NCBI GenBank assembly: GCA_016218805.1
Contig: JACRCW010000044.1
Location: 59,437 to 79,436 of the forward strand
Reading direction: 5' to 3'
DNA: 20,000 nt
Source of the DNA: Deltaproteobacteria bacterium
GTDB lineage: Bacteria; Myxococcota; JACRCW01
Made by a program: the position numbers and the translations under genes. Below the pieces are notes generated by a model that saw only the letters and a list, made by a program, of their open reading frames with translations, searched no databases and was not told the origin of the DNA. Below, in pieces: positions 1-8,662 of this stretch (positions are counted from its first letter, which is position 1; each line of letters starts with the position of its first letter).

Positions 1-100
1 TGTCCACGGGAATGGCGCGGGACCCGGGCGTGTCCAGCGGGGGGAGGGACCACGCGGGCGGTTTGCGCTGCGTGATGTCCGCAACGGTGGGTGTCGTCAT
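1..100 (-). CDS. 5' part of a hypothetical protein running off the left edge (MTTPTVADITQRKPPAWSLPPLDTPGSRAIPVD...)
   Basis: ATG at 100-98 overlaps the RAYT stop (ATGA overlap). The frame is open to position 1 with mostly G/C third positions. It is too short to assign a function. Confidence 0.45.
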   Translation of the reverse strand, partial: MTTPTVADITQRKPPAWSLPPLDTPGSRAIPVD

Positions 101-657
101 GGGGCGGCGGTAGCACGCGGCGGCGCGCCGGGACAAACGGGGTCAGGCCGGCGAGGGCGAGGAGGACCTGTGGGCCCGGCCTCCTGGCCGGGCGCCGGCC
201 CCAAGTTGCCTCGACCACCCAAGCCGGCCCATGGATACCATTCCACTCCCGGCCATCGCCGTGACGGGTTTCCCAGCACGTACGCCGTCGTGTCGTCCAG
301 TTCGCGGTCGTCACGGATGAGCCGGTCGTAGGACTCCTCCTGCCACACCGGTGCCACCCGCCCATGCTCCCCCACCATCACGTGGGCCGTGAACGATTTC
401 CATGACTGGAGAATTCGCGACAGGGGGTGTCCGGATTCCGGACGCAGGATGGCATGCGCGTGGTCGTCCATCACCACCCACGCCCGCAGCGTGTACCGGG
501 TCCCCTCGAAATGCGCGATGGCGCGGCACACGACGGTCCGTTCCTCGTCGGAGAGTACAGCCTGGCCGCGCGCCAGCCGCCAGGTCACGAAATACGTTCC
601 GCCCGCGGCGCGCCAGTGCGGGAGGTGACGGCGCCAGATGAAGAAAGGGCGTTCCAT
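97..657 (-). CDS. rayT: REP-associated tyrosine transposase (RAYT/TnpA-REP, Y1 HUH superfamily)
   Basis: Motifs RRHLPHW, TYFVTWR, AWVVMDDHAH (HUH), QSWKSFTA, VWQEESYDRLIR and YVLGNP (catalytic Tyr). It is flanked by REP-like palindromes. Confidence 0.92.
   Translation of the reverse strand: MERPFFIWRRHLPHWRAAGGTYFVTWRLARGQAVLSDEERTVVCRAIAHFEGTRYTLRAWVVMDDHAHAILRPESGHPLSRILQSWKSFTAHVMVGEHGRVAPVWQEESYDRLIRDDRELDDTTAYVLGNPSRRWPGVEWYPWAGLGGRGNLGPAPGQEAGPTGPPRPRRPDPVCPGAPPRATAAP
170..197 (+). repeat. REP-like palindrome, copy 1 (GTGGGCCCGGCCTCCTGGCCGGGCGCCG)
   Basis: GTGG foot followed by the stem CCCGGCC/GGCCGGG. Matches the reverse complement of 735-761 except for a single T indel in the loop. 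Confidence 0.85.
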
Positions 658-937: not shown

Positions 938-1219
938 ATGTCGGACAACAAAACGCACAAGCACACCCGCGGCGCCGCCAAGGCCGCACGCAAGGACCGC
1001 AAGTGCTCCGTGGAGGGGTGCAAGAACCCCTACCGTGCCAAGGGCTACTGCAACGGCCACTACGCGCACTGGCGCGCCGGCGAGTACGGCAAGGCCCGCT
1101 TCAACACCTGCTCCAAGCCGGACTGCAAGAAGCCGGTGAGCCTCAAGGGCCTGTGCGCCACCCACCACAAGGAGTGGTGGACCGCGCGGCACCCGGAAGC
1201 CGCCGAAAAGAAGGCCTGA
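938..1219 (+). CDS. Small basic protein with two Cys3His zinc-finger-like motifs (resembles the Cys/His motif of myxobacterial vegetative protein VegA)
   Basis: CSVEGC-x9-CNGH and CSKPDC-x9-CATH, Lys/Arg-rich, strong G/C third-position bias, purine-rich leader before the ATG. Confidence 0.85.
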   Translation: MSDNKTHKHTRGAAKAARKDRKCSVEGCKNPYRAKGYCNGHYAHWRAGEYGKARFNTCSKPDCKKPVSLKGLCATHHKEWWTARHPEAAEKKA

Positions 1220-1304: not shown

Positions 1305-1883
1305 GTGTCGACACCGTCATTCCAGGACTTTGCCCGGCGCTACCAGGAGACCTTTGCCCGCGCGGTGGCGGGCTGGGACCTGGCGGCGCTGGAGCGCGTG
1401 GCTGAGGTGCTGCGGCGCGCGCGCGACGATGGGCGCACCGTGCTGGTGGCCGGCAACGGCGGGAGCGCCGCCATCTGCAACCACCTGGAGTGTGACGCCA
1501 CCAAGGGCACGCACCACCCCGGCTGCGCGCCGCTGAACACCCGCTCGCTGTCCGCCAATCCTTCGGTGCTGACCGCGCTCGGCAATGACATCGGTTTTGA
1601 CGTCGTGTTTGAGCGTCAGGTGGAATACTACGCGCGCCCCGCTGACGTGCTGATGCTGATTTCCTCGTCGGGGAATTCGCCCAACGTGGTGCGTGCGTGT
1701 GAGGCGGCCAAGGGCCGCGGCATGATCACCGTGGGGTTTGTGGGCTTTTCCGGCGGGCGGCTCAAGGACCTGTGTGACCACGTGCTCCACATCCCGTTTG
1801 ACAACTACGGCATCAGCGAAGACATGCACCAGGCGTCCATGCACGTCATCACGCAGTGGCTCAACCTGGTGTTCCGGCCCTGA
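1305..1883 (+). CDS. gmhA: SIS-domain phosphoheptose (sedoheptulose-7-phosphate) isomerase, GmhA-like
   Basis: GNGGSAA-x3-H, TALGND, ISSSGNSPNVV, GFSGGRL and EDMH motifs. GTG start. Confidence 0.85.
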   Translation: MSTPSFQDFARRYQETFARAVAGWDLAALERVAEVLRRARDDGRTVLVAGNGGSAAICNHLECDATKGTHHPGCAPLNTRSLSANPSVLTALGNDIGFDVVFERQVEYYARPADVLMLISSSGNSPNVVRACEAAKGRGMITVGFVGFSGGRLKDLCDHVLHIPFDNYGISEDMHQASMHVITQWLNLVFRP

Positions 1884-1903
1884 CCAACGGAGGGAGGCGT
1901 TCC

Positions 1904-2914
1904 ATGGCGCAGTTTGAGGAAGTGGAGGAAGGGCAGGCCCCCAAGAAGAGCAAGACGCCGCTCATCATTGGCGGGGTGGTGGCGGTGGCGGCGGTGGCGG
2001 GGTTTCTGGCCACGCGCGGGTCCGGGGCCATGTCCGCGGAGGAGAAGGCGGCGTTCCAGGAAGCGCAGGACGTGCTGCGGCTGGATGACTACAACCGCTA
2101 CGGCGAAGGCGAGAAGAAGCTGCTGGCGGTCCTGCAGAAGCACCCCGACCACGTGGAGCCCACCGTGTGGCTCATCCAGTTGTACTGCGCCTGGGGCGAA
2201 GAGCTGGACGCCGAGGCGGACACCTTCCGCATGGCCGCGCAGTCCAAGCTCAAGGAGATTGGTGACCTCAAGAAGATCACCGAGACCTCCAAGAGCAAGA
2301 GCGCGCGCGAGAAGGCCAAGACGCAATACGAGGCGGCCAAGAAGGAGCTGGATGAGCTGCAGAACGCGGCCAACATCCGCAACAAGAGCAGCGTGGAGAA
2401 GCTCAAGGCCGCCAAGGACTGGGTGAAGGTGGCCTCCGCCACGGACTATTCGGACGCCGCGCTGCACCGCGCCATGGCGGACTACGGGCGCATCACCGGC
2501 AAGTGGGGCGAGGCGGAGACGCAGCTGCAGTACGTGCAGAAGCTCAAGCCGGACAGCGCGGGGCTGCGGTTCGTCAAGGGCGTCATTGCCCTGCAGCGTG
2601 ACCAGAAGCCCGACGACGCGGTGGCGCTGTACGACGAGGCGTTGAAGATTGACCCCAAGTTTGTCAAGGCGAAGTACTTCAAGGGTCTGGCGCTGGCCAA
2701 GAAGGGCGACAACGACAAGGCCGCCGCCACGATGAAGGAAGTGCTGGTGGAGAGCCCGGGGCACACTGGCGCCAAGGCGTTCCTGGGCCTGGTGGGCACG
2801 CTGGCGCAGGCGCGCAAGGTGGCGGAGGAAGCGGCCAAGGCCGGCACCGCGGATGAACAGGTGGCCGCCGGCGACGAGGCCGAGCCCGCCAAGCCCGCGC
2901 AGCCCGCCAAGTAG
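1904..2914 (+). CDS. Membrane-anchored tetratricopeptide-repeat protein
   Basis: GGAGGGAGG RBS before ATG 1904, N-terminal TM (LIIGGVVAVAAVAGFLA), a coiled-coil-like segment, then TPR motifs (AVALYDEALKIDPKFVKAKYFKGLALAKKG). Confidence 0.85.
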   Translation: MAQFEEVEEGQAPKKSKTPLIIGGVVAVAAVAGFLATRGSGAMSAEEKAAFQEAQDVLRLDDYNRYGEGEKKLLAVLQKHPDHVEPTVWLIQLYCAWGEELDAEADTFRMAAQSKLKEIGDLKKITETSKSKSAREKAKTQYEAAKKELDELQNAANIRNKSSVEKLKAAKDWVKVASATDYSDAALHRAMADYGRITGKWGEAETQLQYVQKLKPDSAGLRFVKGVIALQRDQKPDDAVALYDEALKIDPKFVKAKYFKGLALAKKGDNDKAAATMKEVLVESPGHTGAKAFLGLVGTLAQARKVAEEAAKAGTADEQVAAGDEAEPAKPAQPAK

Positions 2915-2926
2915 ACGCCCGCTGAT

Positions 2927-4366
2927 TCACAAGTCCCGGCGGGACATTGCCTCCACCACGCAGTCCGCGACGTTCAGCGCCAGGGCCATCACGGTCAGCG
3001 TGGGCGGGCGGTCCAGCGCCGTGGGCAGCAGCGACGCGTCCGCCACGTACAGCCCGGTGACCCCGCGCACCGCCCCGGTGACGTCGGTGACGGACGTCTT
3101 TGCGGAGCGGCCCATGCGGCACCCGCCCGCTTCATGACCGGCGCCGCCGCCCGCCAACGGCACCTGCAGCGGCACGGCGCGGCTCCCCGGCACCGCCAGC
3201 ACATCCGCCACCGACACGACTGCCTGCTCCATGTCCTGCACCATGGCGGCCTCGTCGTCACCCCAGGCAAAGTGGATGACCGGCAGCGGCCGCCCCAACG
3301 CGTCTGCCCGTGCGGGGTCCACCGTGGCCCACCGCTGCGGGTTGGGCCCGGATTCACCCATGGCGTGGATGACCAGGTGCGACATCCCGGCCGCGTCCGC
3401 GCGGTCCACGCCCAGCGAGGCCAGCGTGTCGTCCGGCAGCGTGTCCGTGGCAACCGGGCCGCGCACCTCAATGGTGAAACCGCCGCGGTAGGACCGCCGG
3501 GTCCCACGTCCCGCGTTGACAAACCGCGCCACCGTGCACGCGCGCTCCGTGGGCGCCAGCGTGCCGGGCCGCGGCGCGGGACGCGGCAGCAGCACCACGT
3601 GACCAATGAGGACGTGGTCCGTCAGCCCCTTGCCAATGAGCTGCGGGTTGCGGCCCAGTCCGCCCGGCGCCGAAGCGAGCAGCAACCGCACGGTCTCCAC
3701 CGGGGAGGCGCACAGCACCACGGCGCGCGCGGGAAGCTCATGCGTGGTTCGCGTGGTGACGTCCACGTATGCCACACCGCAGGCGCGGCCCCTGCGGTCC
3801 AGCAGCACGCGGGAGACGGCGGCGTCAGGCTGCAGCGGCACGTGGCGTGTGCGGTCCAGCGAGACGTACGCCCGGCAGCCGCACGGTCCCACCGCGGCGC
3901 GCTTGGGGAGCACGGGCACGCCCAGGTCACGCGGGACGGCGTCAAATGGGGGTTCAATGGGGACTTCGCGCAGGCCCAGCAGCGTCTCCACGCGGTGGTA
4001 GTGCTTGTCCAGTTCCCCCACGGCAAACGGGAACGGCACGCCAAACGCCCGCGCGTCCCAGTGGTTGTGTGCGTCCATGCGCAGGCACCACCCGCCCCAC
4101 ACCAGCGTCCGCCCGCCCGCCGCGCGCACGCGCTGCCAGTCGTACGGCGTACCCTCGCCGTGCCACGCCCAGTCCGGTGACGTCGTGGGCAGCACGGGCG
4201 CAATCAGCTTCTCGTACTTGTCACGGTCACAGGAGGGGAGCTTGTCACGCACCAGCGGACCGCATTCCAGCACAAGGACGGACAGCCCGGCGTCCAACAG
4301 GCGGGAGGCCACCAGCATGCCGGAGGCGCCGCTGCCCACCACCACCGCGTCCAGGACATCCGCCAC
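2927..4366 (-). CDS. GMC-family FAD oxidoreductase (divergent)
   Basis: DAVVVGSGASG-...-VLVLECG Rossmann motif, GGRTLVWGG, VVLCASPVETVRLLLAS, GKGLTDH, DALGRPLP, HEAGGCRMG and GLYVADASLLPT-...-PTLTVMALA. Confidence 0.92.
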   Translation of the reverse strand: MADVLDAVVVGSGASGMLVASRLLDAGLSVLVLECGPLVRDKLPSCDRDKYEKLIAPVLPTTSPDWAWHGEGTPYDWQRVRAAGGRTLVWGGWCLRMDAHNHWDARAFGVPFPFAVGELDKHYHRVETLLGLREVPIEPPFDAVPRDLGVPVLPKRAAVGPCGCRAYVSLDRTRHVPLQPDAAVSRVLLDRRGRACGVAYVDVTTRTTHELPARAVVLCASPVETVRLLLASAPGGLGRNPQLIGKGLTDHVLIGHVVLLPRPAPRPGTLAPTERACTVARFVNAGRGTRRSYRGGFTIEVRGPVATDTLPDDTLASLGVDRADAAGMSHLVIHAMGESGPNPQRWATVDPARADALGRPLPVIHFAWGDDEAAMVQDMEQAVVSVADVLAVPGSRAVPLQVPLAGGGAGHEAGGCRMGRSAKTSVTDVTGAVRGVTGLYVADASLLPTALDRPPTLTVMALALNVADCVVEAMSRRDL

Positions 4367-4384
4367 GCGTGTTCCACTACCACG

Positions 4385-5257
4385 TCAGCGCGGCGCCGCG
4401 GCCTGCCCCGCGGACCTGGCCGCCAGCCCCGCCAGCACCAGCAGCACGCCGATCGTCGTCGTGACGCCCAGCGTTTCCCCTCCCACCGCCACGCCCGTCA
4501 GCACCGCCACCGCCGCGGTCACAAACTGCAGGTATGCCAGCCCGCTGACGCTGTAGCGCCGCAGCAGGAGCAGGTAGACCGCGCTGGCGCCGGCGGACGC
4601 CACCAGGCCCAGGTACACAAACGCGCCCACCGCGGCCGGCGTGAACACCACTGGGGCATCCCGCTCCAGCAGCCACCACCCCGCACCCGCACCGGCGCAG
4701 ACGCACAGCGCCATGTCGCGCAGCATCACCGGCACGGGGGTGGACGCGGTGAGGTCCTTGGCCAGCACCTTGGTCACCGCATCCGTCAGCGCCGCCAGCA
4801 GCACCGCGGCCACTGCCGCCGCGTCCATTCCGTCCGCCCCGGCCGGGCCCGCGCGCGCGGCAATGAGCGCAGCGCCGGCAAACCCCAGCAGCGTGGCGAT
4901 GACGGCGGCGCGGCGCAGGCGTTCACCCGGCAGGAGGAAGTGCGCAAGCACCGCCACGAGGAAGGGCGTGGTGGCGATGAGGATGCCAACGAGCGACGAG
5001 GGCAGCCGCGCCTGCGCCCAGTACAGCAGGCCCACGGACGCCGCCTGTGACAGGCCGAATGCCCCGCGTTTCCACGCCGCGGCCGTGGCCGGAGGTGACC
5101 GCGTGACGACGAGGGCCGCCTGGGCGGCGGCGAGCAGCACCGCGTAACGCAGGGCCACCGTGAGCAGCGGTGGCAGCGTGGCCAGCCCCGCCTTGATGAC
5201 CAGGTACTGGGTCCCCCAGGCCAGGGCGAGGAACACCAGGCCGCCAACCCTCAGCAT
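4385..5257 (-). CDS. EamA/DMT-family transporter
   Basis: LAWGTQY, PPLLTVALRY, ATTPF-...-GER, YLGLVAS and GGETLG, with about 10 hydrophobic segments in two EamA repeats. Start placed at ATG 5257 (MLRVGG), downstream of the hairpin. Confidence 0.9.
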   Translation of the reverse strand: MLRVGGLVFLALAWGTQYLVIKAGLATLPPLLTVALRYAVLLAAAQAALVVTRSPPATAAAWKRGAFGLSQAASVGLLYWAQARLPSSLVGILIATTPFLVAVLAHFLLPGERLRRAAVIATLLGFAGAALIAARAGPAGADGMDAAAVAAVLLAALTDAVTKVLAKDLTASTPVPVMLRDMALCVCAGAGAGWWLLERDAPVVFTPAAVGAFVYLGLVASAGASAVYLLLLRRYSVSGLAYLQFVTAAVAVLTGVAVGGETLGVTTTIGVLLVLAGLAARSAGQAAAPR

Positions 5258-5280
5258 GGCGCGGGCTCCAGCAACGGGAA

Positions 5281-5315
5281 CGCCCCGTCCACCGTGAGGC
5301 ACGGTGAGCGGGGCG
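5281..5315. other. Strong GC-rich stem-loop between the peptide gene and the EamA gene
   Basis: CGCCCCG-TC-CACCGTG-AGG-CACGGTG-AG-CGGGGCG gives two perfect 7-bp stems. There is no U-tract. Confidence 0.7.
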
Positions 5316-5352
5316 CCGCGGTCTTACCGGTCCCCCGACGGGGAGGTGTGCG

Positions 5353-5454
5353 TCACTTGCAGCAGGAGATCTTGCAGCAGCCGGTGCCCTGGGGCGCCGG
5401 CGTGGGCTGCTGGACCTGCACGTTCTTGGGCTTGTGGTTCAGCACGGAATTCAT
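5353..5454 (-). CDS. 33-aa Cys-rich peptide MNSVLNHKPKNVQVQQPTPAPQGTGCCKISCCK (candidate RiPP precursor or metal-binding peptide)
   Basis: Strong RBS (GCAGGAGAAACC-ATG), nearly all G/C-ending codons, and Asn/Lys/Gln content unlike GC-rich shadow ORFs. First gene of a co-oriented trio. Confidence 0.8.
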   Translation of the reverse strand: MNSVLNHKPKNVQVQQPTPAPQGTGCCKISCCK

Positions 5455-5683
5455 GGTTTCTCCTGCGGGTGAGAGGGACAAGCGCTGCCGTAAGCGGAGA
5501 AGGGCCCGGACTGCAAGGTGACGCGGCGGTACTGACGGGGCACGCGTCCCCGTCCCCGGGTCCACGTGGCGAACCCCCGCCGCGGTCGGGGTGGCTGGCG
5601 GGGTCCAAAGTTGGAGCAGGTGGTGGGTTGGGCTAGGCTTTCCGGCTCAAGTCCGCGCCCGCTGTGTCGTCGGAGAAGACGCG

Positions 5684-8662
5684 TTGAAGCCGTTCGAGTT
5701 CGGCCCGTATCTCATGCTGGAACGCCTGGCCATTGGTGGCATGGCGGAGGTGTGGCTGGCCAAGAACAAGGGCGCGGCCGGGTTTGAGAAGCTGGTGGCG
5801 GTCAAGCGCATCCTGCCCAACATCAGCGAGGACCAGGAATTCATCAACATGTTTGTGGACGAGGCGAAGATCGCCGGGCAGCTGGCGCACGCCAACATTG
5901 CCCAGATCTTCGACCTGGGGAAGCACGCCGGGTCGTATTACATCGCTTTGGAGTACGTACCCGGCATTGACGTGCGGTCCCTGTGGGAGCGCGTGCGGCA
6001 CCGCGGCGGGTTTCCGCTGGCCATGGCGTGTCACATTGTGTCCCGCCTGTGCGAAGGCCTGGACTACGCGCACCGCCGCAAGGACAGCCGCGGCAAGCCC
6101 ATGGGCATTGTCCACCGCGACGTCAGCCCGCAGAACGTCCTCATCAGCTTTGACGGCGACATCAAGATCATCGATTTTGGGATTGCCAAGGCGGCGCAGC
6201 GGTCCACGCGCACGCAGACGGGCATCCTCAAGGGCAAGTTTGCGTACATGGCGCCGGAGCAGGCGCGCGGGCAGCCCATGGACCACCGCGCGGACATCTT
6301 TGCCATTGGCGTCATCCTGCATGAGCTCATCACCGGCGAGCGCCTGTTCCGCGCCGACAGCGACTTCAGCCTGCTGGAAAAGGTGCGCAAAGCGGACGTG
6401 CAGACGCCGCGCGCCGTGCGGCCGGACACGCCGCCCGAGCTGGAGCGCGTGGTGATGAAGGCGCTGGCCGCCAAGCCGGAGGACCGCTACCCGTGGGCCT
6501 CTGCCATGCAGGCGGACCTGGAGCGCTACATGGTCACCTCGCGGCGCGGCGCGGGGCGCGAGGACCTGGCGCAATTTGTCCGGGACCATTTTGGCGAGGC
6601 GTACAAGCAGGAGCAGGCGCGCCAGAAGGCCGCGCAGGAGTTCTCGCTGTCCCACCTCAAGGCGGTGAGCAGCCAGACCACCGGGCCCGCCCGCAAGCCG
6701 GACGGCACCATGCTGTACGAGACCGGCGAGGTGGACCCGCTCACCAGCAGCGAGGCGGAGGGCAACACCGGCGTGGTGGACGAGCCGAGCCTGTCCGAGT
6801 CCACCGACGTGCACGACTCCGCCATTGAGGGGCCGGCCCCGGATCCGGACGAGTTTGGCGAGGATATGCCACCGACCCGCCCGATGGAGGGCGTCCACCG
6901 GGACGGGCTGCGGCCGGGAAAGGGCAAGCCGGCCGCGGCCGAACCGCCCGGCGTGCGCGCTGCGGACCGGCGGGCGCAGGCGCGCGGCGAACCCGAGGAG
7001 CCCGAGGACGGCAGCGCGACCGACCCGCGCATGGCGCGCGTGGACGACCAGGACCTGATGAACGCGGTGGCCGGCGCCACCATGGCGGAGGAGTCCAGCC
7101 CCGCGTTTGAGGAACCGCCGCGGCCCGCGCCCGCGCCGCGTGCGGACAAGGCGGAGAAGCCTGAGCGGCCCTCCCGTCCCGAGCCACTGCGCCCGCGTGA
7201 CGAGGGCAAGCCGGTCATGCGGCCCGCGCCGTCGTCACGCCCGGGCGGGGGCACGCGGTCCGAGGCCCCGGTGCGCGCGGAGGCGGTGCCCACGCGCGCC
7301 GAAGCGGCGCGCCGCGACGACGACAAACGACCCGACCCGTCCGCCCCCGCGGACCGTGGCCTGCGGCGGGAGATGTCCAGCAGGTCCATGTCCGCGCCGC
7401 CGGTGGCTGACCAGGCAACGATGGACGGCGCGAGTCATGCGGGCCGCTCCAGCGCGCGCCGGCCGGGGGTTCGGCATGACGAGCTGTCCTTCCCGGACAT
7501 GCCCACCGGCGAGGGCGGGCTGCACCAGGACTCCGGTGTGGACGAGTTTGTGGCGATGCCGACGGCGGCGGCGGTGCCCATCTCCAGCGCCTCTCCCGGA
7601 GCGGCGCCGGCCGCGCCGGCGGTGTCCTCCCCGGTGGAGCGCGTCAAGGCGCAGTCCGCTTCAGCCGAAATCAGTCTGCACTCCGCCAACACCAGCCCGC
7701 ACGTGCATCCCGTGCAGGACGCCCCCGGCCGCGGCGGCCTGAAGGTGGTGGCCGGGCTGGTGGTGGGGATGGCGCTGGGAGTGTCGCTGATGGCGGGACT
7801 GTTGTTCTCACCGCTGCTGGGGCGCGGGGCGGTGGTGGTGGTCACCGGCAATGAGCGCGCCCAGGTGCAGGTGGATGACGGGCCCGCGCGCGCCGGCGCA
7901 GTGGTGGCGATGATGATGCCCGCCGGGTCACGCAAGGTGACCATCATCCAGGAGGGCTACCGGCCGGACATCCAGGTGGTGGAGGTGCGCGCCTTTGAGG
8001 TGACGCTGGTCAGCTTTACCGCCACGCCCACGCGCGGGCGCCTGCGCATCAACACCACGCCGGTGGGCGCCACCGTGTTCCTGGACGGCAAGAAGCAGCC
8101 GGGCGTCACGCCCATGGTCATTGACGAGATGCCGCCCGACGGGGAACACGAACTCATCCTCAAACACCCCGAGACGCAGGACGAGAAGGCCACGGTGACC
8201 ACGGAGCAGGGCAAGGAGTTCAACGTGGCCAAGAACCTCAAGTTCCTGGTGACCCGCGTGGTGGTGGACAGTGACCCGGAGGACGCCAGCGTCATGGAGG
8301 GGCGCGAGTTCCGCGGCAAGAAGGGGATGCTGCGCGTGAAGCTGGGGCAGAAGACCGGCCTCAAGGTGGTCCGCCCCGGGTGTGACCCGCAGGAACTGGA
8401 GGTGACGCCCAAGGGCGAGCCCGTCATCAACGAGAAGGTGACGCTGACCTGCCCCGCGTTTGACGCGACCGTGAGCCTGGAGAGCCCGCCGGGAGCGACG
8501 CTGGCGATTGACGGCGTGGAGACGGGCCTCACGCTCCCGGTGATGGAGTACCGGATGCCCGTTGGGAAGCACCGGTTTGAGGTGGTTACCAAGGGCCGGG
8601 TCATTGCCTGGACGGAGAACGTGCTGCAGGGACCGCAGCATCTGGCCGTGCCGGAGCGCTGA
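5684..8662 (+). CDS. Membrane Ser/Thr protein kinase with extracytoplasmic PEGA-like repeats
   Basis: GGMAEV, VAVK, HRDVSPQN, DFGIAK and GKFAYMAPE, followed by a long disordered linker, a TM near 7740-7820 and PEGA motifs (GRLRINTTPVGATVFLDG-...-GVTP). Probable TTG start at 5684 after GGAG. Confidence 0.92.
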   Translation: MKPFEFGPYLMLERLAIGGMAEVWLAKNKGAAGFEKLVAVKRILPNISEDQEFINMFVDEAKIAGQLAHANIAQIFDLGKHAGSYYIALEYVPGIDVRSLWERVRHRGGFPLAMACHIVSRLCEGLDYAHRRKDSRGKPMGIVHRDVSPQNVLISFDGDIKIIDFGIAKAAQRSTRTQTGILKGKFAYMAPEQARGQPMDHRADIFAIGVILHELITGERLFRADSDFSLLEKVRKADVQTPRAVRPDTPPELERVVMKALAAKPEDRYPWASAMQADLERYMVTSRRGAGREDLAQFVRDHFGEAYKQEQARQKAAQEFSLSHLKAVSSQTTGPARKPDGTMLYETGEVDPLTSSEAEGNTGVVDEPSLSESTDVHDSAIEGPAPDPDEFGEDMPPTRPMEGVHRDGLRPGKGKPAAAEPPGVRAADRRAQARGEPEEPEDGSATDPRMARVDDQDLMNAVAGATMAEESSPAFEEPPRPAPAPRADKAEKPERPSRPEPLRPRDEGKPVMRPAPSSRPGGGTRSEAPVRAEAVPTRAEAARRDDDKRPDPSAPADRGLRREMSSRSMSAPPVADQATMDGASHAGRSSARRPGVRHDELSFPDMPTGEGGLHQDSGVDEFVAMPTAAAVPISSASPGAAPAAPAVSSPVERVKAQSASAEISLHSANTSPHVHPVQDAPGRGGLKVVAGLVVGMALGVSLMAGLLFSPLLGRGAVVVVTGNERAQVQVDDGPARAGAVVAMMMPAGSRKVTIIQEGYRPDIQVVEVRAFEVTLVSFTATPTRGRLRINTTPVGATVFLDGKKQPGVTPMVIDEMPPDGEHELILKHPETQDEKATVTTEQGKEFNVAKNLKFLVTRVVVDSDPEDASVMEGREFRGKKGMLRVKLGQKTGLKVVRPGCDPQELEVTPKGEPVINEKVTLTCPAFDATVSLESPPGATLAIDGVETGLTLPVMEYRMPVGKHRFEVVTKGRVIAWTENVLQGPQHLAVPER

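Follow-up and report, generated by a model that had tools for sequence, protein, structure and literature searches.

Methanobactins and bufferins are made from short Cys-bearing precursors whose cysteines are turned into copper-binding heterocycles, and their gene clusters are tied to copper homeostasis and to exporters. Maturation is carried out by MbnB/MNIO-type iron enzymes together with partner proteins, and bufferin precursors carry signal peptides. According to the accessible part of one report, bufferins carry 5-thiooxazole, and GMC oxidases can oxidise thiols to thioaldehydes (PMC13638132). Two GMC oxidoreductases, ThaO and TheO, install thiazoles at the cysteines of Cys-rich ribosomal precursors with a mass loss of 20 Da; their hosts are Thermoanaerobaculia, and TheO acts without a lanthionine synthetase, as set out in the available sections of a recent paper (Nature 2026, PMC13083261). 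The preliminary description of the locus studied here knew of no RiPP class with a GMC enzyme as its sole maturase; on the account given in those sections, TheO now supplies a precedent.

The locus lies in a window of 20,000 nucleotides, the whole stretch of DNA that was analysed, and its features are collected in Table 1. A micro-peptide gene, a hairpin, an EamA transporter gene and a GMC gene make up a single unit on the minus strand, flanked on both sides by genes of the opposite strand. The short ORF with its AGGAGA site, the stem-loop and the two genes that follow on the same strand were all found as the preliminary description had placed them, and the opposite-strand genes that it saw on both sides are confirmed, as a TPR gene and a Ser/Thr kinase gene. 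No copper gene, protease or other maturase was found in the window. We hold it to be somewhat probable that the unit is a cassette of the RiPP kind, in which a leader/core precursor is Cys-oxidised by the GMC enzyme and exported by the EamA protein, with a probable link to copper or another soft metal.

Table 1. Features of the micro-peptide locus and its neighbours, in window coordinates
Feature	Position	Strand	Remarks
TPR gene	1856-2914	+	convergent with the GMC end
FAD-dependent GMC oxidoreductase, cytoplasmic, 479 aa	2927..4366	-	Pfam GMC_oxred_C and GMC_oxred_N
EamA/DMT-family membrane transporter, 290 aa from ATG 5257	4385..5257	-	Pfam EamA
Hairpin, G+C-rich, 37 nt, 17 pairs	5316-5280	-	between peptide stop and EamA start
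Micro-peptide gene	5454..5353	-	33 aa and stop; ATG at 5454, stop 5355-5353
Shine-Dalgarno AGGAGA	5464-5459	-	four bases 5' of the peptide ATG
Ser/Thr kinase gene	5591-8662	+	divergent from the peptide end

The window peptide is the product of a real, conserved gene that accompanies a special flavin enzyme in bacteria of soil and groundwater. Its conserved N-terminal part (residues 1-17) is joined by a Pro/Gln-rich linker to the core CCKISCCK at the C-terminus, with 4 Cys in 33 residues. In nineteen distinct relatives the N-terminus is conserved, the linker varies and the C-terminal part holds a CC-x3-CC core; similar purine-rich sites lie 5' of their starts. A word-indexed search yielded 9 family proteins among 48 candidates, all of 29-40 aa with paired Cys at the end. 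Scanning 1.84 billion representatives with HMMER brought 13 matches at E<=0.001, 12 of them peptides of 29-40 aa, and 401 genomes of the phylum, searched with a profile, yielded 8 true peptide places in 5 genomes. One further match of the profile search, in G043, was dropped as it lies inside the middle of another frame. In an order-level search around G037, 2 of 22 genomes gave a match; these two were known before, and the family did not grow. The DNA pattern for CCKISCCK followed by a stop matched 16 stretches of metagenome contigs, 2 of them true (L060 and L065), and 18 stretches of species genomes, where the G037 genome supplies the only 2 true ones. The remaining 16 species-genome matches are chance CCKICCCK-like words without a convincing ORF; 11 of these 16 loci have a G+C of <=0.36, that is, they lie mostly in A+T-rich DNA, where the expectation of about one chance match for this pattern is too low.

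The two G001 copies of the peptide have coding sequences that are 93% identical, with flanks at 41-49%, and they differ by 7 synonymous and 2 non-synonymous codons. The peptides of L008 and L060 are separated by 7 synonymous and 5 non-synonymous changes; 4 of these 5 affect codons 10-23, the stretch that separates the conserved N-terminus from the CC core. Judged from such codon comparisons, the peptide relatives are under purifying selection. A chance ORF was considered and rejected on the grounds of this synonymous excess, of the relatives found in protein searches and of the rarity of the CC-x(2-5)-CC word, which occurs a single time in the six-frame translation of the whole window.

The enzyme of the window matches GMC_oxred_C with 70 bits (cutoff 24.6) and GMC_oxred_N with 37.9 bits (cutoff 23). 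It has 24 relatives at E<=1e-40 and belongs to a small Myxococcota-type clade, which at E<=1e-60 occupies 20 places in 19 of the 401 genomes; its nearest relative outside the clade, P0032, is a domain-fusion protein. In the clade alignments G11, G13 and G16 (GxGxxG, residues 11-16) and H411 (GHEAG) are invariant. H411 stands before a G-[TG]-C-x-MG motif, as in the GMC superfamily, aligns by HMMER with the His of FAD-GDH, and occupies what we take to be the position of the catalytic His of GMC enzymes. The nearest solved relative is the alpha subunit of FAD-glucose dehydrogenase (6a2u_B, E 2.8e-38), alongside the large subunit of fructose dehydrogenase; for this set of closest structures (6a2u, 8grj, 7w2j, 8jej) the fold comparison gives E 7.4e-27 and TM 0.73. 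The catalytic subunit of these dehydrogenases works with a small partner protein. They share about 19-21% identity with the window enzyme and are periplasmic, with a 3Fe-4S site and a Tat-signal partner, whereas the clade enzymes start directly with the FAD fold and have only GPCGC, or nothing, at the cluster site. The best NCBIfam matches of the window enzyme are weak ones to MftG models (TIGR03970, 67.8 vs 387.45; TIGR04542, 64.8 vs 400; NF038210, 43.4 vs 300). The MftG of mycofactocin loci resembles the window enzyme in being genetically tied to a very short ribosomal peptide, but it oxidises the finished cofactor and not the precursor, as described in the accessible part of the preprint (bioRxiv 10.1101/2024.03.26.586840). 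Unlike mycofactocin loci, the window has no radical-SAM MftC gene and no MftB/D/E/F genes.

The preliminary description had proposed to look for a conserved Cys-rich ORF at homologous GMC loci and would have taken its lack as a refutation. This search found a short Cys-bearing ORF adjoining the GMC gene at 17 of the 20 clade loci in the 401 genomes. Peptides of the CC-x3-CC type stand beside the enzyme in the window, G037, G039, G085 and G001. A 12-residue micro-ORF ending in RHCG[I/L] does so in G267 and at 9 of the 10 loci of one family, as selected with a micro-ORF filter chosen after the first examples had been seen. Peptides with a double-glycine leader are found beside the enzyme in G262 and G390, at the latter with three in tandem. 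No peptide was found at three clade loci, namely those of G026 and G292 and the window genome's own paralogue, which lies inside a cusBA operon. In a quick version of the clade tree, as opposed to a finished careful one, the core type tracks the GMC subclade: CCK cores go with subclade A, and the CCG and HC types with subclade B and its sister group. Three rows of this tree (L024, L027 and L029), each the longest ORF of its locus and on a very long branch, are probably in the wrong frame and were disregarded. Viewed from the peptide, all 5 of the 5 peptide genomes carry a close GMC, and 4 of the 10 CC-type peptide loci have no GMC nearby and adjoin a histidine kinase, a sigma-54 regulator or a Ddl-like ligase. 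Full-text searches of the literature on GMC enzymes with copper, cus or Myxococcus, and on vicinal-Cys small proteins with copper, yielded no account of the module. Pfam and NCBIfam contain no family that matches the 12-codon ORFs or the 29-43-codon peptides, and wherever a public name exists, which is seldom, it reads 'hypothetical protein'; for these reasons the peptide-GMC module is invisible to standard genome mining.

The co-fold of the window peptide with its GMC scored 0.78 (0.77-0.78 in three runs), and the best of 3 controls scored 0.01. The 0.78 mark is reached by 116 of 157 solved complexes and by 2 of 215 mismatched pairs, counts that hold only roughly for this pair because other, author-made alignments were used. 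The runs had at least 64% of contacts in common, with a partner pLDDT of at least 60. Confident contacts join peptide residues 2-5, 7 and 9-17 to GMC residues 147-150, 256, 258, 282 and 378-403; the leader (residues 2-17) is placed confidently and the Cys core is not. Co-folding, one of the checks suggested beforehand, predicts a direct contact through the N-terminal 'leader'. Together with the recurrence of the pair at the clade loci and the purifying selection, this contact supports the earlier suggestion that the peptide is a leader/core precursor oxidised by the GMC, and the micro-peptide is most likely the substrate of its GMC.

On this reading the 33-aa peptide would be translated, and its N-terminal 17 residues would act as a leader that, in the model, docks in extended form on the substrate-binding domain of the enzyme (helix 370-390, strand 396-400). 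The Pro-rich linker would allow the C-terminal CCKISCCK to reach the flavin site. By analogy with ThaO and TheO, the FAD enzyme would then most likely oxidise the Cys side chains from thiol to thioaldehyde, and cyclisation on the preceding carbonyl with loss of water would give a thiazole. Thiazole formation would remove 20 Da per Cys, and the vicinal Cys pairs could yield up to two bithiazole units. The EamA protein, its gene presumably co-transcribed, would export the product.

A docked N-terminus with a free tail is also what one would expect of an unmodified thiolate peptide, a mini-metallothionein or metallochaperone that binds a soft metal such as Cu(I) through its CC pairs. Docked on the enzyme, such a peptide would play the part of a small subunit or of a swinging arm, and might for example receive flavin-reduced metal, or release metal on disulfide oxidation. 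The vicinal Cys pairs at the free C-terminus and the strong heavy-metal context of related loci agree with it, as does the habit of this GMC branch of working with small partner subunits, the FAD-GDH gamma-alpha complex being among the best structural matches. We nevertheless judge it unlikely: with a single Cys and a single His in the 12-residue relatives, and a single Cys in those with a double-glycine leader, the count is too low for a thionein, and at G390 the precursor genes stand in tandem and encode bacteriocin-like leaders, a hallmark of RiPPs. No match to a metallothionein family was found in Pfam (E<=0.01) or NCBIfam (E<=1). It also counts against a metal-shuttling role that, to our knowledge, GMC enzymes are not known as metal reductases.

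The preferred reading, that of a precursor oxidised by its GMC, can be set against ThaO and TheO as far as the accessible sections of that paper describe them (PMC13083261). In both cases an FAD-dependent GMC adjoins a ribosomal peptide composed of a leader and a C-terminal core that contains Cys, and a multimer prediction supports contact between enzyme and precursor. As far as can be judged, the enzymes apparently belong to one GMC branch, the large-subunit type of gluconate, glucose and fructose dehydrogenases. The precursors, however, are unrelated: in the published sections ThaA and TheA have mersacidin-like lanthipeptide leaders and a GGC(G) target, whereas the peptides described here have short Lys-rich leaders and CC-x3-CC, RHCG or FC[V/T]TPWD cores. 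In the Gly-Gly-Cys-Gly target of ThaA and TheA, G-1 and G2 are stated there to be needed by TheO; the window core T-G-C-C-K-I-S-C-C-K has a Gly before the first Cys and none after. Cys-Gly is present in the subclade B relatives and in the 12-aa ORFs. Unlike the ThaO and TheO systems as presented in those sections, the loci studied here have no lanthionine synthetase, C39 peptidase or ABC transporter, belong to Myxococcota-type hosts and are repeatedly embedded in heavy-metal efflux operons. The first 400 residues of TheO, compared by eye, keep the Cys-cluster motif that is reduced to GPCGC in the clade, and the enzymes may therefore be only distant cousins.

The hairpin of the window has a z of only -1.7 by dinucleotide shuffles, with 15 of 200 shuffles equally stable, and none of 60 random 90-nt windows of the same DNA folds as well. 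It has no T-tail, and a terminator scan was negative. An equally strong hairpin follows the peptide stop at 7 of 10 peptide loci, a precursor-like arrangement that counts in favour of the RiPP-kind cassette; at the 12-aa micro-ORF loci the hairpin has a T-rich tail. The order of short ORF, strong hairpin and same-strand genes, seen in the window and at the 12-aa loci, would also suit a cis-regulatory leader ORF, in which a shortage of cysteine or thiols (for example under soft-metal stress) is sensed as the Cys codons are translated, and the hairpin controls read-through into EamA and GMC. Its precedent is found in mycobacteria, where, according to the accessible part of a preprint (bioRxiv 10.1101/834739), polycysteine short ORFs act as Cys-responsive attenuators, and a very short Cys-codon-rich ORF likewise heads the operon. 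Attenuation is nonetheless quite improbable here, as non-Cys residues are conserved and synonymous changes dominate, and the co-fold supports a contact between proteins. The peptide copy at L075 is followed by a convergent gene, which leaves nothing to attenuate; at G267 the micro-ORF is convergent on the 3' end of the GMC gene, and the G001 peptide gene and the GMC operon point away from each other. The peptide family differs from the mycobacterial ORFs, as far as that part of the preprint covers them, in that conservation extends over the entire peptide, the start is preceded by a Shine-Dalgarno site, certain copies occur on their own, and none of the downstream genes belongs to cysteine biosynthesis.

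The EamA protein of the window matches its Pfam family with 75.4 bits (cutoff 28.2) in 2 stretches, which indicates two EamA repeats. In NCBIfam it has generic matches only, and the equivalog model for an O-acetylserine/cysteine exporter (NF008523) is not reached (23.3 vs cutoff 472). A GTG at 5302 is a possible alternative start, but the listed ATG is the likely one because an orthologue with 51% identity, lying 3' of a family peptide at the metagenome locus L065, aligns from there. EamA stands 3' of the peptide at 2 of the 10 peptide loci; the others have an MFS transporter nearby (L010), divergent heavy-metal RND genes (L009) or no transporter seen. EamA, which the preliminary description had counted as a member of the cassette, is accordingly not a conserved partner.

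Heavy-metal RND pumps lie at 5 of the 12 annotated clade loci. Three clade loci have pumps of the CusA/CzcA family (1000.8, 1032.7 and 1048.2 bits; cutoff 701.45), and two further ones have RND pumps with HMBD-bearing adaptors, one of them also with a cupredoxin-like protein. Related peptide-GMC pairs are often inside copper-export operons. G039 has a multicopper oxidase, a TlpA-like protein and a copper-monooxygenase-like protein, and at G001 a His-rich protein and a TonB-dependent receptor lie 3' of the peptide, the receptor being a likeness to methanobactin and bufferin clusters. Unlike those clusters, the window has a flavoenzyme and no MbnB/MNIO-type genes. The metal-handling idea of the first analysis gains support from these related loci; the window itself lacks copper genes. 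It is possible, though somewhat doubtful, that the GMC clade and its micro-peptides constitute a flavin-dependent route, so far undescribed, by which Myxococcota make ribosomal peptides that bind copper, the third after those of methanobactins and bufferins. Along such a route Cys and Cys-Cys would become thiazole and bithiazole in precursors of down to 12 residues, encoded in cus-type copper-efflux operons, and the CC-x3-CC peptide of the window would be the largest, bis-bithiazole, EamA-exported form. If true, Cys heterocycles made by GMC enzymes would be no oddity confined to two Acidobacteriota clusters but a wider enzyme-substrate system that includes three or more new precursor families, one of them with one of the shortest precursor genes known (12 codons). 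The copper/silver efflux operons of myxobacteria would offer a testable physiological setting, bacterial copper defence would gain a new player, and peptide engineering would gain new small, leader-guided, thiazole-forming flavoenzymes.

In all 3 genomes with two peptide copies (G037, G001 and G000) the second copy adjoins an AtoS/ZraS-type kinase and/or an NtrC-type sigma-54 regulator. Because of these neighbours and of the sister GMC modules in heavy-metal efflux operons, the cassette most likely serves to handle a thiophilic metal, be it copper or another one, and two-component sensing is possibly involved. Copper operons of Myxococcus xanthus use such a pair of kinase and sigma-54 regulator, and no GMC is mentioned in the accessible parts of the Myxococcus copper papers covered here, this one included (PMC3707914). 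The same second copies could point to an exported, pheromone-like signalling peptide, modified or not, that is sensed by the neighbouring two-component systems, with GMC and EamA only maturing and exporting it. We consider this very improbable: the regulators are explained equally well as controllers of the peptide gene, and there is no dedicated processing/secretion ABC transporter. A signalling peptide would, moreover, overlap with the RiPP-kind cassette that we prefer and does not exclude it. As a separate observation, a loose sigma-54 pattern picked out one exact-looking candidate site 76 nt before the peptide of G085.

On the minus strand of the window, the peptide gene, its AGGAGA sequence, the hairpin, the EamA transporter gene and the GMC flavoenzyme gene follow one another between opposite-strand neighbours, a layout proposed in the preliminary description and confirmed by coordinates and Pfam matches (see table). 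Of the flanking genes, a TPR gene converges on the unit and a Ser/Thr kinase gene diverges from it. No second maturase-like gene was found in the window, and the word CC-x(2-5)-CC occurs only once across its six frames. The window also encodes a 93-aa Lys/Cys/His-rich protein with spaced, zinc-ribbon-like Cys-His motifs and no Pfam match (938-1219, plus strand), and a 186-aa protein (97-657, minus strand) with a borderline match to IS200-like Y1 transposases (E 9.7e-05; 22.9 bits, cutoff 23).

Features of the peptide-EamA-GMC unit in the window
Feature	Position	Strand	Evidence
Peptide gene, 33 aa (MNSVLNHKPKNVQVQQPTPAPQGTGCCKISCCK)	5454..5353	minus	
AGGAGA, four bases 5' of the ATG	5464-5459	minus	
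Hairpin, 37 nt	5316-5280	minus	folding
EamA transporter	probable start at ATG 5257; stop at 4385	minus	Pfam, 75.4 bits
GMC flavoenzyme, 18 bases past EamA	4366..2927	minus	GMC_oxred_C 70 bits, GMC_oxred_N 37.9 bits

The best-supported reading of this unit is that the peptide leader would guide the GMC to oxidize the core cysteines and that the modified peptide would then be exported, a chemistry and an export that we infer. The gene family, the selection acting on it, its linkage to the GMC and the predicted contact between the two were established by computation. No family match for the peptide was found in Pfam or NCBIfam. A profile built from the first four members matched 9 of 48 candidates in a search of 5.8 billion clusters, all nine being 29-40 aa long with a paired-Cys end, and a complete HMMER scan of 1.84 billion representatives gave 13 matches at E<=0.001, namely 12 such peptides and one 1674-aa protein. 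In the latter (P0036), the leader part of the profile (positions 4-19) matched in four stretches (E 2.5e-05); the matched region lies near residues 581-596 and may hold a repeated K-x-K-N-V-K-V-like motif. Among 401 genomes of the phylum, six matched the profile, yielding eight true places in five genomes: two each in the window's genome, G001 and G037, and one each in G039 and G085. The match in G043 was rejected as false, as it sits inside another frame. With two further peptides from two short metagenome contigs, the family comprises 19 distinct sequences with three common parts: an N-terminus of the pattern M-K-x-L-x-x-K-L-K-N-V-K-V-E, a variable Pro/Lys-rich linker and a C-terminal core (CCKISCCK, CCKITCCK, CCKIGCCK, CCEIRCCE, CCDIRCCD, CCKISCCKISCCK, CCG-repeat forms or HCQIRCCK). 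Purifying selection acts on the peptides. Between the two G001 copies, whose flanks are unalignable, 7 codons show synonymous differences and 2 show non-synonymous ones. Between loci L008 and L060 there are 7 synonymous changes and 5 non-synonymous ones, and four of the latter lie in codons 10-23, the stretch that separates the conserved N-terminus from the CC core. On L060, a 1.7-kb metagenome contig, a D-Ala-D-Ala-ligase-like ATP-grasp gene (305-1480) begins 13 bases past the peptide stop. Large subtilases are encoded near the peptides of G085 (L077, 8354-11200) and G037 (L042, 1572-3992) and could be leader peptidases.

At E<=1e-40, 24 of the 8000 candidates scored are relatives of the window GMC, and at E<=1e-60 its clade occupies 20 places in 19 of the 401 genomes. 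A quick tree, taken ahead of the completed careful search and with three rows disregarded as probably in the wrong frame, separates one subclade (the window, P0011, P0012, G037 and G026) from a second (G001, G039, G085, G267 and the paralogue in the window's own genome), the sister group of the second being drawn from one large family; G262 and G390 form a further subclade. That Cys-containing short ORFs would recur near homologous GMCs was borne out: with all 20 places inspected, a peptide lies beside the GMC at 17, and core type tracks GMC subclade. The relaxed short-ORF filter was chosen after the first examples were known; what counts as evidence is that the same short sequences recur, rather than the filter itself. 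CC-type peptides lie directly upstream of the GMC in the window (with EamA between), G037, G039 and G085, and divergent from a GMC-cusCBA operon in G001. A 12-codon ORF, MKK[K/N][I/L]K[V/I]RHCG[I/L], is present at nine of the ten loci of the large family, 67-85 nt ahead of the GMC, and in G267, where it converges on the GMC. Double-glycine-type leader peptides with the core FC[V/T]TPW(D) occur once in G262 and three times in tandem in G390, with weak, sub-cutoff matches to bacteriocin and lanthipeptide leader models. The G390 ORFs, upstream of the clade GMC, are 33-37 aa long (L083, 8454-9095; the similar single ORF of G262 is at L019, 19-147), and their neighbours include MFS, TetR, metallo-beta-lactamase-fold and PhyH genes. 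No companion was found at the three remaining places (G026, G292 and the paralogue, inside a cusBA operon). A rival explanation is that the peptide gene is a Cys-sensing leader ORF. A Shine-Dalgarno site accompanies the 12-codon ORF, with a T-tailed hairpin on the ORF's 3' side in both loci fully read. The window hairpin has no T-tail, and a terminator scan was negative; the z of this hairpin is only -1.7 against dinucleotide shuffles, while it beats 60 of 60 random windows from the same DNA.

For leader-guided oxidation, the proposed co-fold of peptide and GMC, with each chain supplied as an alignment, predicted direct contact with a score of 0.78 (runs 0.77-0.78) against 0.01 for the best control. 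Of 157 solved complexes, 116 score this high, as do 2 of 215 mismatched pairs; these counts are a rough guide only, because the alignments supplied were custom-made. At least 64% of contacts are common to the runs, and the partner's pLDDT is 60 or higher. Contacts predicted with confidence link residues 2-5, 7 and 9-17 of the peptide with residues 147-150, 256, 258, 282 and 378-403 of the GMC; in the single-chain model (mean pLDDT 75.9, pTM 0.83), these GMC positions correspond to a helix (370-390) and a strand (396-400) in the substrate domain. The Cys core has no confident placement. The model supports, rather than demonstrates, peptide-GMC binding.

The preliminary description knew of no RiPP class with a GMC enzyme as its only maturase, a statement now superseded. 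According to PMC13083261, the GMC oxidoreductases ThaO and TheO make thiazole at a Gly-Cys motif in Cys-rich precursors, TheO is active without a lanthionine synthetase, and GMC enzymes in RiPP biosynthesis were previously undescribed; PMC13638132 ties such thiazole formation to the oxidation of thiols to thioaldehydes by GMC oxidases. The system is of a known kind, first described in 2026, and what is new here are the precursor families and the genomic setting. Thiazole as the product would be a guess from this precedent. Among solved structures, the window GMC comes closest to FAD-glucose dehydrogenase alpha (E 2.8e-38) and to fructose dehydrogenase, and its nearest non-clade relative, P0032, is a domain-fusion protein. 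Judged from these relatives, the window GMC appears to share a branch of the GMC family with ThaO/TheO. MftG models score far below cutoff on the window GMC.

EamA, part of the cassette in the preliminary description, comes after the peptide in the window and at locus L065 (51% identical) but is not a conserved partner, being absent after the peptide at the other eight loci. We infer that a role in soft-metal handling is likely. Genes for heavy-metal handling are frequent around the clade: of its 12 loci with annotated neighbours, 5 have RND pumps. CusA/CzcA-family pumps score above cutoff in G001, G026 and the paralogue locus, and RND pumps accompanied by HMBD-bearing adaptors are encoded in G319 and G343, the latter also having a cupredoxin-like protein, two Cys-rich membrane proteins and an ECF-like sigma factor. 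In G039, a multicopper oxidase, a TlpA-like protein and a copper-monooxygenase-like protein are encoded near the clade GMC. The window itself contains none of the heavy-metal or copper genes and no AtoS/ZraS-type kinase or NtrC-type regulator gene. Another rival explanation is that the peptide is an unmodified, metal-binding partner. Second peptide copies adjoin AtoS/ZraS-type kinases or NtrC-type regulators; this regulator class controls copper in Myxococcus xanthus, according to PMC3707914. The remaining rival is a signalling peptide. The G001 peptide is followed by a His-rich protein and then a TonB-dependent receptor; the former (L009, 11581-12048) has 155 aa and a hydrophobic N-terminus and lies directly 3' of the peptide's hairpin. 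The two Cys-rich membrane proteins of the copper-efflux operons in the large family have no family match. These operons (L082, 5510-9984, in G343; the colinear L084 in G255; L080, 7200-14576, in G319) run from an ECF-like sigma factor through a 196-aa Cys-cluster membrane protein, the 12-codon ORF and the GMC to a paralogous 181-aa Cys-rich membrane protein, a cupredoxin-like protein, an outer-membrane factor, an HMBD-bearing adaptor and an RND pump.
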